From a virus (lineage: Duplodnaviria; Heunggongvirae; Uroviricota; Caudoviricetes), in the IMG/VR virus record IMGVR_UViG_3300033804_000036: DNA of 64,000 nt; one strand, 5' to 3'. The position numbers were made by a program, and so were the translations under genes. The notes below the pieces were generated by a model, which was not told where the DNA came from, did not search any database, and was given only the letters and a program-made list of their open reading frames with translations. The stretch's first letter is position 1, and each line of letters starts with the position of its first letter. Below, one piece after another: positions 5,963 to 63,715 of this stretch.

Positions 5963-6688
5963 ATGGTTTTACTGCAGATAGAAGACCTCAGCGTGGAAGT
6001 CAGCAAGAAAAAGCTGAACAGCAACATACTGTTTCCAGAGCCGAAGCCGTATCGGCCGTTGAAGCAGCTTGACGAAAAAGCAAAGGTCATCGACCCAGCC
6101 GACGTAGTTGAATTGCACCGCCAACGTACATACACTCTTCGGGCCGACGGTTCAGTGATTGGAACAACGGCGCAGGTGTCGTACAAGGATGAATGGGTTG
6201 ACAACGAAGGCAAAGTAGCCGACATAATCCTGTGGCTTCTCATGAAAGACGGCAAGCTTGTTCCATCGAAGCAGTACAGCGCCTCCAGGGTCATCACAGG
6301 AATTCTTCAGATCTCGAGGAAGATTGTGGAGAACTGGGTTCCTGAAAGCGTCTACGAAATCTACATCAGCCGCAGAAAATACAACGAAGCTGAATACGGA
6401 CGTATGCAGGCGCTTCTGTTCAAGAAGGCTGAAGAATGGTACGCCAACGACAGGGCTATGCTTGGACAATTCGTCTTCAGAGAGGGCGGCAGACCGTACG
6501 CCATGCTATTGTTCCCATACATCAGGAAGGAAGGCAACACCTGCAAGTTCTGTTTCGTCATGGCGTGCAGCAGAACAAAACAGGAATTCGAGAACCTGAT
6601 GGAGTTCTCAACTGCACTGAGACAGCCGACTGTGCTTCTGGCTGAGGAACCGAACAACGAGGAACTATTGAGAGCAATTGCTCAGTAA
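5963..6688 (+). CDS. Hypothetical protein, ~241 aa
   Basis: gggtgaagccgaaATG. The track ORF begins 15 nt earlier at a TTG inside the motif. Confidence 0.5.
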   Translation: MVLLQIEDLSVEVSKKKLNSNILFPEPKPYRPLKQLDEKAKVIDPADVVELHRQRTYTLRADGSVIGTTAQVSYKDEWVDNEGKVADIILWLLMKDGKLVPSKQYSASRVITGILQISRKIVENWVPESVYEIYISRRKYNEAEYGRMQALLFKKAEEWYANDRAMLGQFVFREGGRPYAMLLFPYIRKEGNTCKFCFVMACSRTKQEFENLMEFSTALRQPTVLLAEEPNNEELLRAIAQ

Positions 6689-6721
6689 ATCCCAAAGCAA
6701 AGGCAGTGGTGCGGAAGCCAA

Positions 6722-6955
6722 ATGACTGGGAGTCTTAGACACTGTGAAGATTGTGGAAAAGCTATAAGCGCGAATGCTTTTGCACATCGAAAACCAAAAG
6801 ACAAATTGGTTTTATTATGTCAAAAATGTAAGCTACATAAACGTACTGGAACTAATAATCCGAATTGGAAAGGCGATGCGGCTACGTACAGAGCAAAAAG
6901 ATATCGCATTACAAAGGCAAAGAATAGACATGTTAAGGGACTACATCATTTTTAA
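6722..6955 (+). CDS. Small HNH-like zinc-binding protein, 77 aa
   Basis: CEDCGK ... AHRKP ... LLCQKCKLHK resembles a degenerate HNH motif. Confidence 0.35.
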   Translation: MTGSLRHCEDCGKAISANAFAHRKPKDKLVLLCQKCKLHKRTGTNNPNWKGDAATYRAKRYRITKAKNRHVKGLHHF

Positions 6956-12941: not shown

Positions 12942-13682
12942 ATGCCAATAACAAAGCTAGTGCTAGAATCTGCATGTAAAGAATCATGGGAGCTAGGATA
13001 CATTCTTGGCGTAATATGTGGAGATGGTTTCATCCGTCAACAGCATTACGTCTGCCTGACAACAACCAACAAAGAGTTTGCACTTGCTTTTAATAATGTT
13101 CTCCAAAGATGGAGCGGTGTGAAACCATACTTATATGAATATGACAGAGCAATCAAGGGCAAACCATATCATTACTACTATGCAGGTATTGCATCGAAGA
13201 CTGCAGTAGCAATACTCAGAAATATAGGACAATTCGGAACTTATACATGGAACATTCCCGATATTGTTTCTCATAATAGAGACATGACAAAGGGCTTTCT
13301 AAGTGGGTGGTTTGATTCAGAAGGAAATATTTCTAACTGTTATCTTCACAGAAAGATTAGAGGATTCAGCGTTAACAAGGCAGGTTTACTTCAAGTTAAG
13401 CAGTTGCTTGCGATGTTTAAAATTGAATCATATGTAGGTCTCTTTATGAAGCAGAACTCGAAAGTCTGGACAGATAATCCACGACCATACTATTACATAG
13501 CATTCGAAGGAAGGGAGAAATTAATAAAATTCAAAGATACCGTTACATTTCAACGGCAAACAATGACCGAGAAATTAGCAAAATTACTCCAATCATACAG
13601 AAATATGGACGTAGAAGATGGCAGAATGAAAGGACTGCTCAGTTGTTGGCATAACGAGGGTGAAATAAATAAAGGAGTGTGA
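12942..13682 (+). CDS. LAGLIDADG homing endonuclease, two-motif, free-standing
   Basis: LGYILGVICGDGFI and KGFLSGWFDSEGNIS. A tatatatac TATA-like element lies upstream, where the GGGTGAA motif is absent. Confidence 0.75.
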   Translation: MPITKLVLESACKESWELGYILGVICGDGFIRQQHYVCLTTTNKEFALAFNNVLQRWSGVKPYLYEYDRAIKGKPYHYYYAGIASKTAVAILRNIGQFGTYTWNIPDIVSHNRDMTKGFLSGWFDSEGNISNCYLHRKIRGFSVNKAGLLQVKQLLAMFKIESYVGLFMKQNSKVWTDNPRPYYYIAFEGREKLIKFKDTVTFQRQTMTEKLAKLLQSYRNMDVEDGRMKGLLSCWHNEGEINKGV

Positions 13683-34928: not shown

Positions 34929-34948
34929 TTTTTCTGTTGGGTGAAAAA

Positions 34949-35671
34949 ATGTCTGAATATCCAAAGATTGAAACATTGTTTGACCGCGACCCGAAAACGG
35001 TCAAGGTTGACGAAAGCAAAATTCGACTGCCAGAGTTTCTAATGGTAAGCAAATGGTACGTCACAGAGAAAATTGACGGAACAAACGTACGGACTGATTT
35101 CAAAACCAAATGGGAACCAACTGGAAAGTTTCTAAGTCCAAACCAGCCTGTTGTTCAAAATGCTGGTCGCGTGGTAGAAGTTGCGGGCAGAACTGAAAAT
35201 GCGCAGATGCCGCCGTTTCTCTATCGGTTTCTGTCCGACACTTTCACTCTGGAAAAATTGCAGCAAACATTTCCAGATCTTGAACCTCATATCACCGTAA
35301 CAATTTACGGCGAAGGTTACGGACCAAAAATTCAAAGCGGAGGTAACTATCGCAAAGACATTGCGTGTAGACTTTTTGACGTGAAAGTTGGTTCGTGGTG
35401 GCTTGAACCTGACAACATCGACAGTGTAGCTCGGAAGCTGGGCATTCAAACTGTTCCGTTGATTTCGGAAGCCATGACCATTGAAGACGCAGTCGCATTC
35501 GTCAAGAATAAACCGCAATCCAAAGTTTCAATGCAGGAATATGAAGGCATATGCAAAGACGGAAAATATCCATCAATAGAAGGCATAGTAGCAAGGACTA
35601 CACCGCTATTGTTGCGACGCAACGGCGAAAGACTAATGTGGAAACTGAAATGTAAAGACTTCAAACTCTAA
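34949..35671 (+). CDS. ATP-dependent RNA-ligase-like nucleotidyltransferase (Rnl family)
   Basis: Motif I KIDGTNV, motif IV-like EGIVAR, motif V WKLK. Confidence 0.62.
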   Translation: MSEYPKIETLFDRDPKTVKVDESKIRLPEFLMVSKWYVTEKIDGTNVRTDFKTKWEPTGKFLSPNQPVVQNAGRVVEVAGRTENAQMPPFLYRFLSDTFTLEKLQQTFPDLEPHITVTIYGEGYGPKIQSGGNYRKDIACRLFDVKVGSWWLEPDNIDSVARKLGIQTVPLISEAMTIEDAVAFVKNKPQSKVSMQEYEGICKDGKYPSIEGIVARTTPLLLRRNGERLMWKLKCKDFKL

Positions 35672-36795: not shown

Positions 36796-36872
36796 AGACA
36801 ATTAGCTCAACCTGGTTGAGCATTGGCCTATAGAGCCGAAGAATGAGGGTTCAAATCCCCCATTGTCTACCA
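36796..36872 (+). tRNA. tRNA with an AUA anticodon (Tyr-like) and CCA encoded. The only + strand tRNA
   Basis: Acceptor AGACAAT/ATTGTCT, D-arm GCTC-aacctggtt-GAGC, anticodon arm TTGGC-CTATAGA-GCCGA, T-arm GAGGG-TTCAAAT-CCCCC, then A-CCA. Confidence 0.55.
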
Positions 36873-37149: not shown

Positions 37150-37629
37150 ATGAATTGGGGATATGTGGCAGGCTTCTTTGATGGAGAAGGTTGTTTAACT
37201 TTCTCATATGAAAGTAAGCAAGTAGCTCCAAGAATTGAAATATCAAACTGTAACTCGGATACATTAGAAGCACAAAGAACTTTTACAGGTAACTTAGGTC
37301 ACATAAACCCGTATAAGCCGCGACGTAGACATAGTGGCTTACTCCCGAAATACACAAAGAATACCCGACCGATTTGGCGATGGGACATTGCTCATCGCGA
37401 CGACGTACAAACTTTCCTTGAAAACATAAAATCCTTTCTTATCATTAAGAAAGATTTGGCTGAGCTAGCACTCGTAATAATCGCAAATAATGACTACTCC
37501 AAATGTTCACATAAACTTCACAGAGTTGACCAGAAGAAATTCGACGCAAATATTGGAAAGAGGAGAAGACCTGCAAGGAACTTGGTAAAGAGTATAAAGT
37601 GCATCCAATGGCGATTCAAAAATTCATGA
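37150..37629 (+). CDS. LAGLIDADG homing endonuclease, single motif
   Basis: MNWGYVAGFFDGEGCL. A tatatag TATA-like element lies upstream, where the GGGTGAA motif is absent. Confidence 0.65.
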   Translation: MNWGYVAGFFDGEGCLTFSYESKQVAPRIEISNCNSDTLEAQRTFTGNLGHINPYKPRRRHSGLLPKYTKNTRPIWRWDIAHRDDVQTFLENIKSFLIIKKDLAELALVIIANNDYSKCSHKLHRVDQKKFDANIGKRRRPARNLVKSIKCIQWRFKNS

Positions 37630-38062: not shown

Positions 38063-38248
38063 ATGAGGCTAGGATTCAACATAGGAGCTTTCCTTGTGGG
38101 TTTCGGCACACCAGCGTTCGTTTACGGTGTTGTCGAATGGTGCTCACAGAAGCCACGTGTATTCTACCTAGTTGAAATGGTTGTGGGACTTTCTGTAACT
38201 GCAGCAGGATTTCTCTTGATATATGCTTCGGAGAAAAGAAAGAAATGA
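38063..38248 (+). CDS. Small membrane protein
   Basis: Two TM helices. Confidence 0.45.
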   Translation: MRLGFNIGAFLVGFGTPAFVYGVVEWCSQKPRVFYLVEMVVGLSVTAAGFLLIYASEKRKK

Positions 38249-39042
38249 CAAAGTTCACGTTTGACAAGTTCAGCTTTGACATCGACAAGTCTTTCCTGAA
38301 GCTTTCACTGCTGCTGGTTGTCAGCGGATCCCATGCTTACGGATGGCCTACTGAAGCAAGCGACTTGGATGTACGCCATGTTTTCGCCCCTGAAATCAGA
38401 CAGGCACTCAGCATATTCTACAAATGCAAGACAGAACAGCGTAAAGAAAAACATGAGGAAGGACTGATTGAATTCACAACCTATCCGATTCAGCCTTTCC
38501 TCGGGCTGCTCGCTAAAGGCAACGGAAACGTGCTGGACAACCTTTTCGAAGCCACAGGACCGCCGCAGCCAGTGCTTTACGTTGACAAACCGAAAGTTGT
38601 GGAATTGCAGAAAATAGTTCTTGATCATCTGCACAAAGGGTTTCTGATGCACTGCACCGGGTACGACACTCATCTGAAGAAAGACATGGAAAACGAGACG
38701 AGGCTAGCGCGGTACGGCAGAGAGAAGCTGCTGCTTAACAGGTACAAGATTCTGCTGGAAGGACTGATCCTCGCCAACTACGGCGAAGTAGTCTACAATC
38801 TCAGGAAACAACACGAATACATAAAGACGCTCTGGTGCATTGAACTACTAGAAGATTACCAAGCAGGCAGGCCGTTTCTCGCGTTTCTCGGCAGAAGAGC
38901 AAACCAAGAAGCAACACTTGAAGTTGAGCAACTGCATAGTCGACTGGTAAAGTTGACGGAAACAATAAAGTGGCCTACCGCAGGGCAAAGCACCATCGAC
39001 GTTCCCTTGGACAGATGGTTAATCAATCACTATCTCCCCTAA
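38245..39042 (+). CDS. Pol-beta-superfamily nucleotidyltransferase
   Basis: VSGSHAYGWPTEASDLDV (GS ... D.D). Substrate unknown. Confidence 0.55.
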   Translation: MTKFTFDKFSFDIDKSFLKLSLLLVVSGSHAYGWPTEASDLDVRHVFAPEIRQALSIFYKCKTEQRKEKHEEGLIEFTTYPIQPFLGLLAKGNGNVLDNLFEATGPPQPVLYVDKPKVVELQKIVLDHLHKGFLMHCTGYDTHLKKDMENETRLARYGREKLLLNRYKILLEGLILANYGEVVYNLRKQHEYIKTLWCIELLEDYQAGRPFLAFLGRRANQEATLEVEQLHSRLVKLTETIKWPTAGQSTIDVPLDRWLINHYLP

Positions 39043-44769: not shown

Positions 44770-44841
44770 TCCTCTCACATGGATTCGCACCATGACTTCT
44801 TGGTTTACGGCCAAGTGTGCTAACTACTACACTATGAGAGG
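44770..44841 (-). tRNA. tRNA-Tyr(GTA)
   Basis: Hand fold: acceptor cctctca/tgagagg, T-arm catgg-attcgca-ccatg, anticodon arm cttgg-tttacgg-ccaag (RC loop CCGTAAA). Confidence 0.55.
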
Positions 44842-45224
44842 CTGATTTCGTATTTCAGTCCAAATTTATTCTCGATATAATGTGCGGCATTGCAAACATG
44901 ACACAGCACGTTAAACTCGTTTTTTCGTTGTTCTCGAAGAATACTTCTAAGTAATTGCCAATATCCGTGTGTTTTCTGATCTTTATGTCCTCCGAGGTTA
45001 AGGTGATTGATTTCCAACACGGCGAAGACGGTACATCCACATCTTGCGCATTTTGCTCCGCCGAGGTATTCAAGCACCTTTAACTTCAAATTTTGTTTGG
45101 CTCGGCTGTCTATGATGTGTTGTTTTTCAGGATTTTTCTGTCTCCATTTTTTCACGTAGTCACGATTGAACTCTCTCATATAGGTTCGTCGTTTGTCCTT
45201 GTCTTTGTATCTATCGTGTGGCAT
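44832..45224 (-). CDS. HNH endonuclease
   Basis: CARCGC ... EINHLNLGGH ... CHVCN. Paralog of 48099-48470 and 48850-49263. Its 3' end overlaps the 5' end of tRNA-Tyr. Confidence 0.65.
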   Translation of the reverse strand: MPHDRYKDKDKRRTYMREFNRDYVKKWRQKNPEKQHIIDSRAKQNLKLKVLEYLGGAKCARCGCTVFAVLEINHLNLGGHKDQKTHGYWQLLRSILREQRKNEFNVLCHVCNAAHYIENKFGLKYEISLS

Positions 45225-46890: not shown

Positions 46891-47038
46891 TAGGCGCGGA
46901 AGGAGTTGAACCTTCGTTAATTGCTTTCTTGGTTCCATGCTGGGGTGTCATCCCTCTTACCACGCCACGTCTACGTTTCCGACTAGCGACCAACACGAAA
47001 CTTGTAAGGCAAATGTCCTACCGTTAGACCACGCGCCT
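46891..47038 (-). tRNA. tRNA-Val(TAC) with a ~77-nt intron
   Basis: Acceptor aggcgcg/cgcgcct, T-arm gaagg-agttgaa-ccttc. Loop CTTACA plus intron. Confidence 0.45.
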
Positions 47039-47045
47039 GCTATGG

Positions 47046-47320
47046 TAGCCCCGGAGAGAATCGAACTCTCGTCATCGGCTTTCTCCAGCGTTATCGGAAG
47101 AGGCTGACACCAGCACGGTTTCTGCGCACCGTACCGCACGCTCCCCAGTACCGACACTTCCTGGGACTTAGGTTAGGCACATACCTCCTTTGCCGACGCA
47201 TCCAAAGGCTTATGCCCTCGTTAAGACACACCTCTTAGTCGCCCACAGAGGATTCTGGTACTACCAGAGCGTCAAAGTCTTTCAGAGGCCGACATCCTTT
47301 TCCAGTTGGACTACGGGGCT
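47046..47320 (-). tRNA. tRNA-Gln(CTG) with a ~200-nt intron
   Basis: 3' half 47047-47079: acceptor agccccg, T-arm gagag-aatcgaa-ctctc, stem TCGGC. 5' half 47281-47320: cggggct acceptor, D-arm GTCC/GGAT, stem GCCGA, loop CTCTGA. Confidence 0.5.
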
Positions 47321-47947: not shown

Positions 47948-48108
47948 TAGTGGGGGTGGGATTCGAACCCACGCGTTGGCCCCTACGGGAAGAGGTTTCT
48001 CACAGGCTGAACAGTCGTTCTTAGCCGTCCTTAGCATCGAGCCTACGACTTGAGCTTCGAGCTTTAGTCTTAAGCCTCTCGCTTTCAGCCATGCTTAGCT
48101 ACCCCACT
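47948..48108 (-). tRNA. tRNA-Leu(TAA), type II, with a ~72-nt intron
   Basis: Acceptor agtgggg/ccccact. Variable arm TCCCGTAGGGG. Anticodon stem AGAGG/CCTCT. Loop CTTAAGA. Confidence 0.5.
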
Positions 48109-48470
48109 ACATTGTCTGGCAACCATTTTATGTCCCAATGATCTTCAATACCTCTTAACCTTGTCAAACAATGCCACGCATTGCATACTCTACAGGTTAG
48201 TTCCAGTTCATCTTTGTTTTGTTTTCCGTTCAGTATCGCAAAGTAGAATGCTCTTCGTGTCTGCCACTTCTTCCTTTTATGTCCGCCTCCGTTCTTATGG
48301 TTAATTTCCAAAGCTTCGGATATATCGCAACCACAATACACGCATTTTCCTCCAAGGAAAGCAAGCACGCGTTTTCTGAGCATCCGTCCATATTCGGCTC
48401 TTTGTAGTCTTCTTTTTCTTTGCCATTCTTTTTGATAGACTCTGTTTACTTCTCTATCAGCGTATGGCAT
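48099..48470 (-). CDS. HNH endonuclease
   Basis: CVYCGC ... EINHKNGGGH ... CRVCN. Overlaps the 5' end of tRNA-Leu. Confidence 0.65.
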   Translation of the reverse strand: MPYADREVNRVYQKEWQRKRRLQRAEYGRMLRKRVLAFLGGKCVYCGCDISEALEINHKNGGGHKRKKWQTRRAFYFAILNGKQNKDELELTCRVCNAWHCLTRLRGIEDHWDIKWLPDNVVG

Positions 48471-48816: not shown

Positions 48817-48820
48817 TTGG

Positions 48821-49407
48821 TGGTCCCTCCGGGATTCGGACCCGGCTCGTTAGGTATGAAGTCTGATGTTTCGATATATCGTGGTCCAATTCCACTTCAG
48901 GTACTTCATGCAGAAGTGAACTCCGATGTGACACCAGTAGCATAGACGAACCCATTCGTCTGGTTCTAACAGTGCACGACGGAGTTCCGCTAAGGAATAA
49001 CTATGCTTTTTTCCATCTTTTCTATGGAGACTTAGTCTGTATTTACTGTTATCGCAGAGGATACACTTAGTTCCCCATACGATATCTCTCTGTTTCTTTA
49101 ATGTCTCCTTATACTGTCGTGTGCATTCGTTATTTGCAATTCTACGCTCCTCGAGGTTCTGTTTTTCACGTTTAATAGTAGTTCGCGTTGGAAGACCAAG
49201 TTTTTTCCTCTTGTACCACTCTCGTTGGTAGGTTCGTTTTGTTTCTCTATCTTTGAAAGGCATGAACTACTTATGGTTTTGAACCCTTATTAGTCTTTCG
49301 AACCCATCAGATGTCTTCCGTTCTGGATGAAAGCATCGTCCTCTCGTTGAGAGCCTAACATCCTTAGACGGCAAATTGTGCCTTTGTCCAGAATAGACTA
49401 AGGGACC
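48821..49407 (-). tRNA. tRNA-Glu(CTC) split by a ~490-nt intron enclosing an HNH gene. A second short insertion near the D-arm is possible
   Basis: 3' part 48822-48854: acceptor ggtccct, T-arm ccggg-attcgga-cccgg, stem ttagg. 5' part 49347-49407: stem cctaa, loop CTCTCAA, acceptor agggacc. Confidence 0.45.
48850..49263 (-). CDS. HNH endonuclease inside the putative tRNA-Glu intron
   Basis: CILCDN ... SLHRKDGKKH ... CYWCH. Same strand as the tRNA. Confidence 0.6.
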   Translation of the reverse strand: MPFKDRETKRTYQREWYKRKKLGLPTRTTIKREKQNLEERRIANNECTRQYKETLKKQRDIVWGTKCILCDNSKYRLSLHRKDGKKHSYSLAELRRALLEPDEWVRLCYWCHIGVHFCMKYLKWNWTTIYRNIRLHT

Positions 49408-58117: not shown

Positions 58118-59194
58118 ATGAAGAAAATCGTGCTAACTTGTTCTGATTTTGATTTTGAAAAATTAAAAAAGCAGAAAGCATCTGACGGGTTTGCAGCGGC
58201 AACATGGGAGAAATGGCTGCTTAGCAAAGGCTCTTCTGGTTTAGAATTGACTGAAACTGAGCAATGCCATATCGGAACAAAAACTATGCATACGTTGTGG
58301 TGGAAAAACATCGGACACAACCTTGCATATATCAGGCGGAAAGACACTAGAAGCTTACGGCAGCTTGCCAAAATCAAATCGGAAGGCCCAGCAGTTGTTG
58401 TCGGGGCTGGACCGAGTGTGTGGCAGCATAAGCATCTTGATGTGTTGAAAAACAGCGGTTATAGAGGAATTGTCGTCGCATGCGATAAAATGCTGAAACC
58501 TCTGCTGGAACATGGAATCGTCCCGAACTATGTTATGACGGTTGACGGGACAGAACTCATAATTCCCTTCTACAAGAACAAAGCGTTCAGAGAACATGTA
58601 AAAGACATAAAAGTGCTGTTGCATTTCACGGCAAACCCGAAGCTTGTAAGATATCTTTACCGGCTTAAAGCAGACATTTACTGGTTTATCATTCATACAG
58701 AAATGATCTTAACGCCGGAAGATGCGGCGATGCAGTCTGTCTGTATGACCATGACAAAACACAACCCAGATGGCTTGCAAACAATTGTTTCAGGCGGAAA
58801 CGTCGGCGTTGGAGCATGGGCATTCAGTTGGGTGGTATTGAAAGCGAACCCTGTTATTTTAATTGGATATGACATGGGATATCCTGAAGGAACAAACCTT
58901 CACACAACCTATTATTACAGCGCGTTAATGAATAAAACTCAGGAACAGATAGCTGACTCGACAGCGGCGTCGCTTACAGTAGCTACACAATACCAGAAAG
59001 AGTATAATCCTGCCTTCAAATGTTGGGCGTACACCGACGTTGTTTTTCGACAGTATAAAGCAATTTTCGGTTCGTTTCTTTCCCATTCACCGGCAAACGT
59101 TACTACCATCAACTGTACTGAAGGCGGGACCCTGCATCATCCCAGACTTCAACATGCAACACTGGCTGAAACACTAAAAAAATACAGGGTTTAG
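58118..59194 (+). CDS. DUF115 / MAF_flag10-like protein (nonulosonic-acid glycosylation accessory factor)
   Basis: AVVVGAGPSV ... GIVVACDKMLKPLLEHGIVPNYVMTVD resembles DUF115/MptE-like. Confidence 0.5.
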   Translation: MKKIVLTCSDFDFEKLKKQKASDGFAAATWEKWLLSKGSSGLELTETEQCHIGTKTMHTLWWKNIGHNLAYIRRKDTRSLRQLAKIKSEGPAVVVGAGPSVWQHKHLDVLKNSGYRGIVVACDKMLKPLLEHGIVPNYVMTVDGTELIIPFYKNKAFREHVKDIKVLLHFTANPKLVRYLYRLKADIYWFIIHTEMILTPEDAAMQSVCMTMTKHNPDGLQTIVSGGNVGVGAWAFSWVVLKANPVILIGYDMGYPEGTNLHTTYYYSALMNKTQEQIADSTAASLTVATQYQKEYNPAFKCWAYTDVVFRQYKAIFGSFLSHSPANVTTINCTEGGTLHHPRLQHATLAETLKKYRV

Positions 59195-59769
59195 CCTGAG
59201 GTGCACATGCAGAACGCCCAGACAATCGTCAATTTATCAGTAGAGGCTATACCAACCGGGGTGAATGTTGCCGCGGCAAACCATGAATTCCAGGCATCAC
59301 TGCAGCAGTAGGTTGCAACACTGTAAGTTGCCGCGTTGCCCACGGCTAATACGGCACCGCCGACACTTGACAATCCCGCCGTCAATCCAGTGAAGCTGAA
59401 AGTTGCGCAGAGATACCATGAGAAACTGCCTGTCGTCCCAGCTCCACCCATGTTAAGTCCTGCGGAAGCGTTGAAGGCGGAGAGTGCACCAAAGTATCCT
59501 GAGATAATCATGCAGCCTGCCGTGCAAAAAGCTGTTGCGTTTGTAGCGCTCGCACCCATTCCGGTGGTGCTGGACCAGATGTAGATGTACCTAGCTGATG
59601 GAAGTGCAGCCCCGTTCATCAACGCGCTTCCTATGCTGCTTAACTGGTAGGTAGAGATCACGTTGTGTCTGGTGCAAGTGTATTTAATGTTGCCGTCGCC
59701 GTCAACAATAGTTACGGTTACGTTGCCGTTTAAGCCTCGCAGATAACCTGATAATGGACCGACTGACAC
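59191..59769 (-). CDS. Gly/Ala/Ser/Thr-rich low-complexity protein (surface/structural?)
   Basis: 192-aa ORF convergent with the DUF115 gene. Confidence 0.3.
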   Translation of the reverse strand: MSVGPLSGYLRGLNGNVTVTIVDGDGNIKYTCTRHNVISTYQLSSIGSALMNGAALPSARYIYIWSSTTGMGASATNATAFCTAGCMIISGYFGALSAFNASAGLNMGGAGTTGSFSWYLCATFSFTGLTAGLSSVGGAVLAVGNAATYSVATYCCSDAWNSWFAAATFTPVGIASTDKLTIVWAFCMCTSG

Positions 59770-59817
59770 GTTGGTTCTCCGAATACCCCTTTTGTGTTAG
59801 AAAGGTTATAAAGTTTT

Positions 59818-60099
59818 TTATTCGTCGCTAGGAGCGCCGGGTGTTGGTTCAAGAGCAAGTATGAGTCTTTTTCCAGAATTCACTTCTAGCTGGGATACGT
59901 ATCGTTTTCCACATTTAGGATTGGTGCAACCAAAAATAACGGGTATGACTTCGGCACCGCAGCTTAAACAGTATTTAAGCGGTTGCACATCAGCCGCGAA
60001 CATTGGCGTGCTCTTCGAACTGTCATAGATCACTTTTCCGTTACGCACCAGTTTTACGTACACTCGCTCTCCGAGAGGAGGTACTCCTTGTTCTGCCAT
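59818..60099 (-). CDS. Zinc-ribbon protein, 93 aa
   Basis: CLSCGAE ... CTNPKCGK. Confidence 0.4.
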   Translation of the reverse strand: MAEQGVPPLGERVYVKLVRNGKVIYDSSKSTPMFAADVQPLKYCLSCGAEVIPVIFGCTNPKCGKRYVSQLEVNSGKRLILALEPTPGAPSDE

Positions 60100-60128
60100 T
60101 TCTATCAGTCATACTTCTGTCTTAAAGA

Positions 60129-60542
60129 TTATAAGGTTTTAGGCTTGGCAAGAAAACCGTCCGTCAATATCCCGTAAGTATGCGACCCGTCTTTCTGCGT
60201 TCCATCATTTGCAACATACGGCACATCGTTGTTCGTAACGTACCAGCGAATCCATCTTCGAGCAACAAGCGGCGGATTAAAAACGTACGGCTGGTTAATT
60301 TGGATTTCATATTGGTATTGACGAATGAACCCGTCGACGTTCAACTCTAGAATTGACCGAGTGGCAGGCGGGTTGCTGCCTTCAAACCAGTCACAAGCAA
60401 TCCTTTCAACAAACCCAGTGTAGCCGCCTGTTCCTTCTATAGCCATATCGAAAACTTTCTGCTGTAGCACACCAGAGCCGACAAGAGCATACGCGAAAGG
60501 ATCTGGAAATTGGATACGCTCAATTTCGGGCGTGACAGACAT
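60129..60542 (-). CDS. Hypothetical protein, 137 aa
   Basis: ORF. Confidence 0.4.
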   Translation of the reverse strand: MSVTPEIERIQFPDPFAYALVGSGVLQQKVFDMAIEGTGGYTGFVERIACDWFEGSNPPATRSILELNVDGFIRQYQYEIQINQPYVFNPPLVARRWIRWYVTNNDVPYVANDGTQKDGSHTYGILTDGFLAKPKTL

Positions 60543-60545
60543 ATT

Positions 60546-60761
60546 CTACCTCCGAGAATAGCCTGTATCATGTCTGAACCTAGACTCGTCACCCTCACTT
60601 ACTGTAGCAGAAGACGTTTGGCTCGCGTTAAGCTGAGCTTGCGCTTGGGCTTGAAGATTCATCTGTTTCATAACAACAGCCGCCGTTATTGATGATGCTA
60701 CACCTGCAACTACGGCCATAAGCAGCCACACTCGGATGTCGTCATGCCAGGCGCGGGCCAT
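60546..60761 (-). CDS. Small membrane protein
   Basis: TM helix. ATGA overlap. Confidence 0.35.
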   Translation of the reverse strand: MARAWHDDIRVWLLMAVVAGVASSITAAVVMKQMNLQAQAQAQLNASQTSSATVSEGDESRFRHDTGYSRR

Positions 60762-60768
60762 TTATCTT

Positions 60769-60984
60769 TCACTTCTTTGAGCTAAGCAGCGCGTACAGTC
60801 CGAGTAAGCCGACTACAGCCACGATGCCGATGACGATTAGACCGGTTGTGTTGATTTCTGGCAGTTGAAAAATCGGCTGCGATTGTGTGTACTGCTGCAC
60901 AGGCAGGGGTTGTTGAGGGGGAGCAGTTACTTCAGCACGCGTTCTAGTTTGAAAATAGTGTTCAGGAGTATCTCTGATTGCCAA
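60769..60984 (-). CDS. Small membrane protein
   Basis: C-terminal TM helix. Confidence 0.35.
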   Translation of the reverse strand: MAIRDTPEHYFQTRTRAEVTAPPQQPLPVQQYTQSQPIFQLPEINTTGLIVIGIVAVVGLLGLYALLSSKK

Positions 60985-61005
60985 GTGGGTTCTCCATGTA
61001 ACAGT

Positions 61006-61662
61006 TTATTCTGCAGGTTTTATAAAAGTTTGCTCGGTGCCGTTGGAAAGCAGTTTCCGAGTTTCCTGTGCGCCTATGCAGAACAGAGCATCAAGAATGG
61101 ACAGGTCCTTCTCGAACGGGCCGTCAGTCAACTGTTTATAGACTGGATGAACAAACACTTCACGAAGAGGTTCACCGTTCAGTTTATCCATTAAAACAGG
61201 AATCGCTCGCGAAACAGACCAGGATGTAAACTGGGTTTTCGTATAGAAAGGTTGCACGTGTTTGCCCATCAGTTCAGCAGCCCACATTGTTGTCTGCAGG
61301 TTTAACGGTTCGAGGAGAACATTGGGAGATTCAATGTAATATTTGATTTCGTCAAAATAGTCTCTGAAGAAAGGCGCTTTACTGTAGTCCAGTTCTATTG
61401 ACTTGAGAAAGTTCTTCCGCCAGTTTTGAAGGTTGTCAATCACCATTTCGCAGAGTGGTTTGTTGCAGGGTCTTTTCACGGCAACTGCTAACTGCTGAAT
61501 TCCCGATTCTGTTTTAACCCGGCATCTGCTCTGTCTGCTGCGGGGAAGGAAAATGGCGTGGTCAACTACAACCCATATGTTAGAGTGTAGAAGCCCGAAG
61601 AAAAAATCCATTGGAGGAAAGAATTCGGGCGCATGAAAAAACAGTATGTTACTTATGCCCAA
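61006..61662 (-). CDS. WbqC-like family protein
   Basis: PEFFPPMDFFFGLLHSNIWVVVDHAIFLPRSRQSRCRVK resembles WbqC. Confidence 0.5.
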   Translation of the reverse strand: MGISNILFFHAPEFFPPMDFFFGLLHSNIWVVVDHAIFLPRSRQSRCRVKTESGIQQLAVAVKRPCNKPLCEMVIDNLQNWRKNFLKSIELDYSKAPFFRDYFDEIKYYIESPNVLLEPLNLQTTMWAAELMGKHVQPFYTKTQFTSWSVSRAIPVLMDKLNGEPLREVFVHPVYKQLTDGPFEKDLSILDALFCIGAQETRKLLSNGTEQTFIKPAE

Positions 61663-62599
61663 GGGTCAGAGCCTTCCTGCGAAGGTTGTCATCCAACGGG
61701 ATGCTGTCCAAGATTGCAGCGATACGTTTTGAACCGCCGGTCACTGTTGCAGGAACATTCAAACCCTTGTTACGTGATCCTATCTGCACATGCTTCTGTT
61801 CATCGTCAATTGTCGGCAGTTCATAATAGAAACTGCTGCTGTTGCCAATGGCCCGTCGACAATTCTTCAGCAGACTGAAAAACTGTGGTCTAGGCAAATT
61901 GGCTGTAATCACCTTCACATACTGGCCAGAATATGATTTGCCCGGGTCTTCAGCTTCATATTCCATTTTTAATCGGTTGAGGTATTCGTCTATTATCTCG
62001 TGGTTCCTGTCTTTGTTGCCTGCAACCCAGACGACGAGAGGGGAAGTTTCAATAGTTTTCAATGTTTCTTCAAGGTCTTTCCTCGTGTTTTCCTCCGACA
62101 CAGGGTCAGGGTGCAGAACGACCAGGTCAAACGGTTCGTTAGGCGTGATAGAATCGTCTAGTACGATACCGTCAAACGCTGTGGAGCCGACGACAAAGAT
62201 TCTCCAGCATTCCTCTCCCAACGCCATAAGGTTCAACTTGTGTTCAGGCATATTGCAAAACATGATGTGGCTGAAACAGGAAATAACTCGCCGATTGATG
62301 TCGTCAGGATGGTTAGCCATGTTGTTGCCCGCGTGAAAATGACACACTACGTAACCCTGATGGAAAGCTCGGGCGGCCACATAGGTGATTTCAAACCTGT
62401 CGCACGGAACAACAACTATGTCAGGCTTGAAATAACGCAGGTAAGCGTCAAAGCCGCTGACAACCTCTGGAACAGCATCCGTAGCATCATAGAAAAACCA
62501 TTTAGCATCCACAGTTCCGAGACTTTTCAACTCAGCCATCACAGGCTCAAGCAAACCACGCTCAGCCCTATCAGACGACACAACAAGTATCTTTCTCAT
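61649..62599 (-). CDS. neuC: UDP-N-acetylglucosamine 2-epimerase (hydrolysing), NeuC-like
   Basis: KILVVSSDRAERGLLEPV ... VVCHFHAGNNM ... ISCFSHIMF. Confidence 0.6.
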   Translation of the reverse strand: MRKILVVSSDRAERGLLEPVMAELKSLGTVDAKWFFYDATDAVPEVVSGFDAYLRYFKPDIVVVPCDRFEITYVAARAFHQGYVVCHFHAGNNMANHPDDINRRVISCFSHIMFCNMPEHKLNLMALGEECWRIFVVGSTAFDGIVLDDSITPNEPFDLVVLHPDPVSEENTRKDLEETLKTIETSPLVVWVAGNKDRNHEIIDEYLNRLKMEYEAEDPGKSYSGQYVKVITANLPRPQFFSLLKNCRRAIGNSSSFYYELPTIDDEQKHVQIGSRNKGLNVPATVTGGSKRIAAILDSIPLDDNLRRKALTLGHK

Positions 62600-62883
62600 T
62601 CCTCTTTTGCTCCAATACCAACGTCGATGGTGGAGACAGCCGCTCTGAGAGCAAGTATTCCAGCACTGCCTACCTCGAAATGAAAAATCTTGTCGTACCT
62701 GCCATCCTTACGTTCCTTCCACCCACAGATAGCTAGACCTCTTCTCACTGGAGAACAAGACAACAACCCTTCACATTCATCAAAATAAATACGGAAAACT
62801 AGTCCACAGCCTTTAAGAATTTCATTGGCTGATGCTACAGTTTTTTTACAGATGGGAATAACCTTTTCTAGATTCTCACTCAT
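62596..62883 (-). CDS. Hypothetical protein, 95 aa
   Basis: ORF between neuC and neuB. Confidence 0.3.
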   Translation of the reverse strand: MSENLEKVIPICKKTVASANEILKGCGLVFRIYFDECEGLLSCSPVRRGLAICGWKERKDGRYDKIFHFEVGSAGILALRAAVSTIDVGIGAKEE

Positions 62884-62899
62884 GCCTAAGTTGGCTCTC

Positions 62900-63715
62900 C
62901 TAGATGCGCGTGCGCTGAATACGCTCTATGAGTCCCACTTGCTTAATAAAAGTTGCCAGTTCATCAAACGTAATTGACACGGCCGCGTCGATTGGCGGTG
63001 GTTCATCCTCGATTTTGCCTGTTTTGTCAATGGTAAATGATGCATTGATAGTGTGCGCGGGAGGAAATCGAACGTGTTTTTCCAAGTAAACTTCCTTATG
63101 AACATGGTTGATGGCGAAAGCCAAATCGAAAAGAGTGTGTGGAAAATGGCTGCTGAAACCTTTACAAACGCATGCCCGTTCAAGGTTGAAGTCTTCAGGT
63201 TCAGGCGGATACTTTGGAATGCAATACATCATGAAAACGCGGGCGTTGTACGCTAGCATCGGGTCTATCGGAAGTTTCTGGAGGCTTATCAGCACAGGTT
63301 TTCCCGTGTCCATCGCCTTGTCAATGAGAGGTTTGTTTTCATTGTCTTTGAATCGAATCTTGATAGCATCCGCATATTTGTTGGCGATGTTAACAGCTTC
63401 CAGATACATCGGCGTAAGTACAAACTTCAATCCAAGTCGAGAGGCATGCTCATGGAGGTCAGCCACATTCTGCTCGGTAAGAATCAATTTTTGTAGTCGA
63501 CTTCGCAGTGGAGATTCTTTAATAACATCTTCATTGAAAAGCTGAAACTTTACACCCCATGCCCCTGCTTCCTTAGAAGCGAAAATCATCTGCTGTGCAA
63601 CATCTAACGGGTAGTCTGGCTTTTCCCAGTTAACCCCAATCTCCGCCACTACATGGCAGGGCAAAGTTTCTCTACTTCCCTTGATCGCTGGACCCAGCGA
63701 TAATATGCGGGCCAA
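62900..63715 (-). CDS. neuB: N-acetylneuraminate (nonulosonic acid) synthase, NeuB-like
   Basis: VVAEIGVNWEKPDYPLDVAQQMIFASKEAGAWGVKFQLF. TTG start. Confidence 0.7.
   Translation of the reverse strand: MARILSLGPAIKGSRETLPCHVVAEIGVNWEKPDYPLDVAQQMIFASKEAGAWGVKFQLFNEDVIKESPLRSRLQKLILTEQNVADLHEHASRLGLKFVLTPMYLEAVNIANKYADAIKIRFKDNENKPLIDKAMDTGKPVLISLQKLPIDPMLAYNARVFMMYCIPKYPPEPEDFNLERACVCKGFSSHFPHTLFDLAFAINHVHKEVYLEKHVRFPPAHTINASFTIDKTGKIEDEPPPIDAAVSITFDELATFIKQVGLIERIQRTRI

Follow-up and report, generated by a model that had tools for sequence, protein, structure and literature searches.

A probable 201-nt BHB-type intron of composite build in the tRNA-Gln(CUG) gene of a virus-like element

The minus strand of the window (the whole 64,000-nt stretch of DNA analyzed) carries two halves of a tRNA-Gln(CUG) gene, and the question that they raise is what lies between them. 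An initial annotation had proposed a tRNA-Gln(CTG) with an intron of ~200 nt. Both halves are found where that annotation placed them, and they are 201 nt apart (Table 1). From the sequence and its comparison with relatives we conclude, with high confidence, that the tRNA-Gln(CUG) gene is functional and that its insert is an intron of the BHB type.

Table 1. Features discussed in the text and their coordinates in the window.
Feature	Coordinates	Strand	Basis or remarks
tRNA-Gln(CUG) gene with encoded CCA	47320-47043	minus	interrupted by 201-nt insert at 37/38
tRNA-Gln(CUG) 5′ exon, positions 1-37	47282-47320	minus	sequence, ARAGORN; conserved in 4 orthologues
Predicted 201-nt BHB-type intron, canonical 37/38 site	47081-47281	minus	register fixed by anticodon stem
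tRNA-Gln(CUG) 3′ exon, A38 to CCA	47043-47080	minus	anticodon-stem register, cloverleaf, orthologues
Conserved core hairpin of intron (GAGGGCATAAGCCTTTG)	47203-47219	minus	alignment; 5/5 pairs formed in all five orthologues
Module 1, ~58-60 nt, three-way junction	47220-47279	minus	common to window, L087 and L089; absent from L091 and L092
Module 2, 99-nt window-specific block, candidate nested intron	47092-47190	minus	strict hBHBh′ borders, alignment
tRNA array, 22 tRNAs, all 20 amino acids	44769-49587	minus	12/22 with BHB introns
Array tRNAs with one BHB intron			Ala 19; Arg 90; Leu 72; Ser 58; Met 72; Val 77; Thr 42; Asp 38; Pro 16; Gln 201 nt
Array tRNAs with two introns			Glu 20+492; Lys 15+31 nt
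tRNA-Glu(CUC)	48820-49407	minus	20-nt D-loop BHB intron 49383-49364; 492-nt intron at 37/38, 49347-48856
tRNA-Lys(UUU)	48642-48518	minus	introns 15 nt at 30/31 (48609-48595) and 31 nt at 37/38 (48587-48557)
RNA ligase gene (PF09414)	34937-35671	plus	relatives named 'ATP-dependent RNA circularization protein' by JGI
RlaP-family nucleotidyltransferase	38245-39042	plus	synteny conserved in relatives

Read along the minus strand, the 5′ exon (47320-47282) is AGCCCCG-TA-GTCC-AACTGGAAAA-GGAT-G-TCGGC-CTCTGA, giving an acceptor strand AGCCCCG, a D arm GTCC/GGAT, an anticodon-stem strand TCGGC (47292-47288) and the loop bases CTCTGA that correspond to C32-A37. The 3′ exon (47080-47043) is A-GCCGA-TGAC-GAGAG-TTCGATT-CTCTC-CGGGGCT-A-CCA, comprising A38, the stem strand GCCGA (47079-47075), a T arm GAGAG/CTCTC, the acceptor strand CGGGGCT, A73 and an encoded CCA. 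The annotation had the pairing of the anticodon stem right and the labels of its two strands swapped. It had also considered that the halves might belong to other tRNAs, and this can be set aside since the neighboring Gly-UCC (47530-47459) and Val-UAC (47038-46888) are each complete without them. Nor does the insert contain an ORF of any consequence, as had been noted; the only one that crosses it is a 66-aa GTG ORF (46957-47157) that spans part of the intron, the 3′ exon and tRNA-Val, and is surely spurious.

The gene is reported neither by ARAGORN with default settings nor by the Rfam tRNA model. With introns allowed, ARAGORN places a tRNA at 47043-47320 with an intron of 201 nt that is a few bases out of place, and gives the gene as Pyl/cta. 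The shift and the Pyl label are artefacts of the program's heuristic. Excision of the intron according to the splice motif gives a product of 77 nt that is called tRNA-Gln(ctg), bearing out the annotated identity, and folds as a regular cloverleaf. Its acceptor stem has 7 bp, the D, anticodon and T arms are all present, and the anticodon loop has 7 nt including U33. The pair A1-U72 is typical of archaeal tRNA-Gln, in which it would serve as an identity element, and is present in the window and in all orthologues.

In the BHB geometry that we sought, bases 32-35 form a 4-bp helix with the intron and a 3-nt bulge lies on either flank (PMC4090602). The register was set by the anticodon stem of each gene, for nine interrupted tRNAs, and the geometry was then checked. 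Across these nine, 33 of 36 positions in the central helix are paired, and the 3′ bulge ends in A38 in every case. In tRNA-Gln the stem TCGGC/GCCGA forms all five pairs, and the central helix made by CTCT (47287-47284) with GGAG (47086-47083) forms all four. The two bulges, GA^A (47283-47281) and AA^A (47082-47080), predict cleavage between 47282 and 47281 on the 5′ side and between 47081 and 47080 on the 3′ side. An unconstrained BHB scan of the array is non-specific, with 282 hits compared with ~220 in shuffled sequences, and we therefore give weight only to the test in fixed register. Thirteen spliced products were generated, covering all 12 interrupted tRNAs of the window, and all 13 become standard tRNAs.

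The core of the motif, a 4-bp helix with two 3-nt bulges on opposite strands, is present in the window tRNA-Gln and in four orthologues. The helix h′, which is the anticodon stem, has 5-7 bp, and the inner helix h has 2 bp in the window and 1-3 bp in the orthologues, compared with 7-12 bp in Met, Val and Asp. The outer Gln motif is therefore not of the strict hBHBh′ form; with an inner helix of only 2 bp it is of the relaxed HBh′ kind. Such motifs are cut by lenient types of endonuclease (PMC4090602). Because the inner helix is 1-3 bp in all the orthologues, a strict α4/α2 endonuclease might fail to cut the Gln intron. The predicted energy of the precursor is −107.4 kcal/mol when folded freely, −101.7 kcal/mol as cloverleaf plus outer BHB and −99.4 kcal/mol with the nested BHB described below, so that the cloverleaf with BHB lies 5.7 kcal/mol above the minimum.

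In the precursor C32-U35 would pair with GGAG near the 3′ end of the intron. The 3-nt bulge adjoining the anticodon stem would contain the 3′ cut AA^A, and the bulge on the other flank the 5′ cut GA^A. The host splicing endonuclease EndA would cut both sites, and a ligase of the RtcB type would join the exons to give a 74-nt tRNA plus CCA and circularize the intron. For the Gln precursor we infer cleavage, ligation and circularization from the sequence and from published descriptions of BHB geometry and the EndA/ligase mechanism (PMC4090602, PMC7714728). Neither a scan of about 45 ORFs nor the precomputed Pfam tables for the element revealed a homologue of EndA or RtcB, and splicing is thus presumably dependent on the host.

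Relatives were sought using a 189-aa protein encoded inside the array. This gave seven homologues, the contigs of which have syntenic tRNA arrays with the same gene order. tRNA-Gln(CUG) lies between Gly-UCC and Val-UAC in L087/L088, L089, L091 and L092; L087 and L088 are the same sequence and were counted once, giving five Gln sequences including the window. All have an intron at the same site, of ~95 (L087), ~94 (L089), ~36 (L091) and ~38 nt (L092) in the relatives. Every one of the 142 helix cells in the five sequences is paired, and in the exons four pairs are compensatory, of which three belong to the T stem and the fourth to the anticodon stem. This takes the gene far beyond what chance would provide. 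GGAG and A38 are invariant across the five, and the two intronic bulge bases vary as AA, AC or AG. Covariation in the exons together with invariance of GGAG and A38 is the mark of a gene and splice motif under selection, and argues against a disrupted pseudogene. Introns are gained and lost elsewhere in these arrays. The Val intron (77 nt in the window) is absent from L087, L091 and L092, the Met intron (72 nt) is absent from L087, and the tRNA-Gln of L089 has an additional strict intron of 19 nt at 59/60.

Other searches were less productive. A 17-mer from the Gln exon hit viral contigs twice, both times by chance and in the absence of a tRNA; a 22-mer had no hit in viral contigs and one chance hit in a bacterial coding sequence in the genome collection. 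A blastn search of the array against phage records gave no match. Used as bait in viral and metagenome collections, the DUF5131 protein brought up 82 loci with no tRNA array at any of them, its family being too broad for such a search.

How then did the intron reach 201 nt? Alignment reveals a core, AAGAGGGCATAAGCCTTTGAAAG…CTGGAGAN, common to all five Gln introns, to which two modules are added in the window. We looked for a nested BHB at the borders of module 1 and found none. Module 2 is bounded by a strict hBHBh′ motif with an outer helix GCG/CGC, a central helix TCGG/CCGA, bulges CA^A and TA^A, and an inner helix AGGAGGT/GCCTCTT, and no copy of it exists elsewhere among the window and the relatives' sequences compared. 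A motif of this quality also occurs in about 27% of shuffled sequences, so it is not significant by itself. Its borders coincide within a few nucleotides with those of the insertion as independently aligned, and this supports module 2 as a nested intron. With module 2 taken out, the intron has 102 nt, comparable to its L087 and L089 counterparts, and the conserved core hairpin forms again. On this comparison the chances that module 2 is an intron within the Gln intron seem about even. Its own splicing would be unnecessary for maturation of the tRNA, since the outer cuts remove the whole insert. On this view a core intron of ~36 nt like that of L091 and L092 would have been enlarged by the ~58-nt module found also in L087 and L089, and in the window genome alone the 99-nt block, with its own BHB, would have been added as well. 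The unusual length of the Gln intron is best explained as historical rather than functional.

The second intron of tRNA-Glu(CUC) provides a comparison. The 492 nt comprise a 35-nt primary intron and a BHB-bounded insert of 457 nt (49312-48856). The insert carries a 137-aa HNH-like ORF (48850-49263), the stop codon of which falls in the 3′ exon. Its BHB has the helix GAAG/CTTC, bulges AC^A and AT^A, and a 7-bp helix TCTGATG/CATCAGA. In L089 the orthologous tRNA-Glu is a 113-nt gene with a 35-nt intron, and excision at the inner BHB regenerates the L089 precursor exactly. As GAAG is common to the inner and outer motifs, splicing would need two steps. The L091 contig starts within a homologous ORF that likewise runs into tRNA-Glu. 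It is possible, and we propose it tentatively, that in this virus lineage BHB introns move and can insert into each other, the 99-nt Gln and 457-nt Glu blocks being 'BHB twintrons'. If so, formation of the outer splice motif of tRNA-Glu would have to await removal of the inner intron and religation of the RNA, and in the HNH-like endonuclease an archaeal-type tRNA intron would have its first associated homing enzyme.

Three small Cys-rich ORFs in the array, at 48099-48470, 44832-45224 and 48850-49263, all on the minus strand, are weakly similar to each other. Two match HNH-endonuclease PHROGs (E = 4e-5 and 2e-8). One stands alone, overlapping the very start of tRNA-Leu(UAA). LAGLIDADG-like ORFs are present at 12942-13682 and 37150-37629.

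The distribution of the modules bears on the possibility that the length itself was selected, the excised intron being a stable and probably circular RNA acting as guide, decoy or regulator, perhaps with the aid of the element's own ligase. Archaeal BHB introns do become circularized and some are guide RNAs (PMC4090602, PMC7714728), but apart from the pairing segment conservation of this intron is limited to the 17-nt core hairpin, and modules 1 and 2 come and go among close relatives. It is more structured than its shuffled counterparts (z = −2.5), and the element encodes an RNA ligase of PF09414 with relatives named for RNA circularization; yet when the intron was compared with Rfam, as the annotation had suggested, no family matched even at E ≤ 5 with relaxed filters, and no C box (RUGAUGA), D box (CUGA) or ACA box is present in the 201 nt. 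Patchy modules and a small conserved core argue against a conserved function of the long form, and we regard a selected, functional RNA as unlikely. A role as host of a box C/D or H/ACA RNA, as in tRNA-Trp, was rejected on the absence of the boxes.

Less probable still is that unrelated DNA has been inserted into a tRNA-Gln that is no longer made. The insert is longer than the reported range for archaeal tRNAs (PMC4090602), module 2 is confined to the window genome and the gene is missed by standard tRNA finders. Yet the exons are intact and co-vary with those of the orthologues, the splice motif is fully kept despite the additions, and the added block has its own BHB and would thus be removable. 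Moreover no other tRNA-Gln is present in the array, which accounts for all 20 amino acids only if this gene is counted.

In the tRNA genes of bacteria and some phages, group I introns are usually ~200-250 nt in size. That the insert is such a self-splicing intron has a negligible probability: its length and strong predicted structure would fit a small one, the array has HNH-like ORFs of the sort that commonly accompany phage group I introns, such introns do occur in archaea (PMC6125680), and the anticodon-loop site and homing-endonuclease association are shared with those of bacterial, phage and Patescibacteria tRNAs (PMC13011429), but there is no ribozyme core and no match to an Rfam group I family under the relaxed search above, the boundary nucleotides are wrong, with the 5′ exon ending in A37 rather than the U required for the P1 G·U pair and the intron ending in A rather than G, the orthologous introns of 36-38 nt at the same site are too short for any ribozyme, and the BHB geometry is common to 11 other tRNAs with introns of 15-90 nt.

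A BHB-type intron thus remains the preferred reading, and introns of this type at 37/38 are well established. Those of Haloferax volcanii are 31 nt in tRNA-Gln(UUG), 75 nt in tRNA-Met and 103 nt in tRNA-Trp (PMC7714728, PMC4090602). The window intron shares with these the site, the 4-bp helix between bases 32-35 and the intron and the cuts within 3-nt bulges, and by analogy the same EndA and ligase mechanism would be expected. It differs in its relaxed 5′ side, its modular build and its location on a virus-like element rather than a cellular chromosome. The annotation was right that the intron is of archaeal type, but in allowing this size to a few archaeal lineages it understated the case, since the range given in a 2014 review is 11-129 nt (PMC4090602); a later survey was not found, and longer introns may have been reported since.

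Six of the 22 array tRNAs are missed both by default ARAGORN and by Rfam at the gathering score, and many of the Rfam tRNA matches in the array are over-long. Routine tRNA finders therefore miss many viral tRNAs, as this array shows. Introns at non-canonical sites and relaxed motifs are found in lineages with lenient endonucleases, namely Crenarchaeota, Thaumarchaeota and Nanoarchaeota (PMC4090602). The array resembles tRNA genes of Thermoproteales/TACK in having introns at 30/31, 59/60 and in the D-loop with relaxed hBH/HBh′ motifs, and in the gain and loss of introns between orthologues, a pattern attributed there to intron transposition (PMC4090602). Those genes are cellular, however, and the descriptions consulted have neither nested BHB motifs nor an intronic endonuclease ORF. 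The haloarchaeal virus HGTV-1 has 34-36 tRNAs, described as the record for archaeal viruses, one of them with an intron (PMC8651126, PMC13532342). Like the window it is an archaeal virus-type element with a large tRNA set and RNA ligase genes; unlike it, the window has 12 of 22 tRNAs interrupted, some twice and at non-canonical sites. The two share no nucleotide similarity, and the window PCNA is only 24-28% identical to halovirus PCNAs. A survey of Bathyarchaeia viruses makes no mention of viral tRNA arrays or introns (PMC10848311).

The PCNA of the window has matches among archaeal PCNAs (E ~1e-41), and shares 63-67% identity with cellular ones encoded on contigs as long as 1.5 Mb; nearly all of those with a name are Bathyarchaeota/Bathyarchaeia. 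This similarity makes Bathyarchaeia our best guess for the host, held with moderate confidence given that it comes from one gene. A relative encodes MCM, and the tRNA-His has an encoded G-1 and C73. An HtrA-like protease was uninformative as a taxonomic marker. The content is virus-like, with the tRNA array, homing endonucleases, PCNA, ligases, NAMPT and many small ORFs, and the carrier appears from these genes to be a virus-like element that belongs to uncultured archaea. Searches with Pfam and PHROGs recognized no capsid, portal or terminase gene in about 80 kb, including the window and ~9 kb beyond it; without a capsid gene the term virus stays provisional, and the carrier could be another kind of extrachromosomal element.

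The synteny of the RNA ligase and RlaP genes with ThiF, PCNA, NAMPT and DUF5131 is kept in relatives. A link of the ligase to RNA end-joining or circularization is possible from its family, and with RlaP it could form an RNA repair or processing module tied to the intron-rich tRNAs. A cluster of sugar-modification genes lies at 58118-63715 of the window and in L095:1-10000. It encodes UDP-GlcNAc 2-epimerase, NeuB, a CMP-sugar transferase, a DegT aminotransferase, WbqC, an MptE-like protein and GT2, which suggests nonulosonic-acid synthesis by the element.

The BHB mechanism is known; the novelty here lies in the carrier, in how many of its tRNA genes are interrupted, and in the length and composite build of the intron. 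No virus has previously been described with an array in which BHB introns interrupt over half of the tRNAs. In archaeal cells tRNA genes with introns are known, and a proposed role for them is defense against viruses that use tRNA genes as integration sites. In the present case the interrupted tRNAs belong to a set for all 20 amino acids and sit in the mobile element itself, which would consequently depend on host splicing enzymes for its own tRNAs. Its close relatives show introns gained, lost, moved and enlarged over short evolutionary distances. This provides a natural system in which to study the spread of protein-spliced introns, the length and relaxation of substrate that the endonuclease accepts, and whether the spread is driven by homing endonucleases.

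Some further features of the array were observed. U33 is near-universal in tRNAs, but the loop of spliced tRNA-Lys(UUU) is CCTTTAA, with C at position 33, in both the window and L091; its 31-39 pair is C-G in one and G-C in the other. tRNA-Arg(CCU) has a single 90-nt intron at 37/38 in the window (48816-48645, minus), while in L091:88-254 and L089 (~6590-6760) an interruption apparently follows GGAG in the 5′ strand of the anticodon stem, and a second intron, a short one, lies at 37/38. The split stem means that intron position differs among the orthologues. The sequence GCCTGAYGC recurs in the Arg introns, and is the strand pairing with the CAGG of GGCAGGAG. An isolated tRNA on the plus strand (36796-36872) has an encoded CCA and the loop CTATAGA, with the anticodon AUA (nominally Tyr, A34); the corresponding place in the related contig L004 has tRNA-Tyr(GUA). 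A spacer of 107 nt between tRNA-Phe and tRNA-His (46341-46235, minus) has no assigned feature, and short A/T-rich direct repeats (AATAATAAAATC...) lie between tRNA-Asp and tRNA-Pro (45993-45948, minus).

Lastly, a conserved structured RNA of ~130 nt lies between tRNA-Gly(UCC) and tRNA-Gln, at 47458-47326 (minus) in the window, L089:7799-7925 and L092:2015-2139, and is missing from L087 and L091. It matches no Rfam family and is not recognizable as a tRNA, and a search with a 30-mer from it returned no match. It is closed by a 7-bp acceptor-like stem GACGCGC/GCGCGTC and has a nearly invariant 5′ part of 55 nt. The long 3′ arm has a variable tip and compensatory changes, such as CAGGG/CCCTG to AAGGG/CCCTT.
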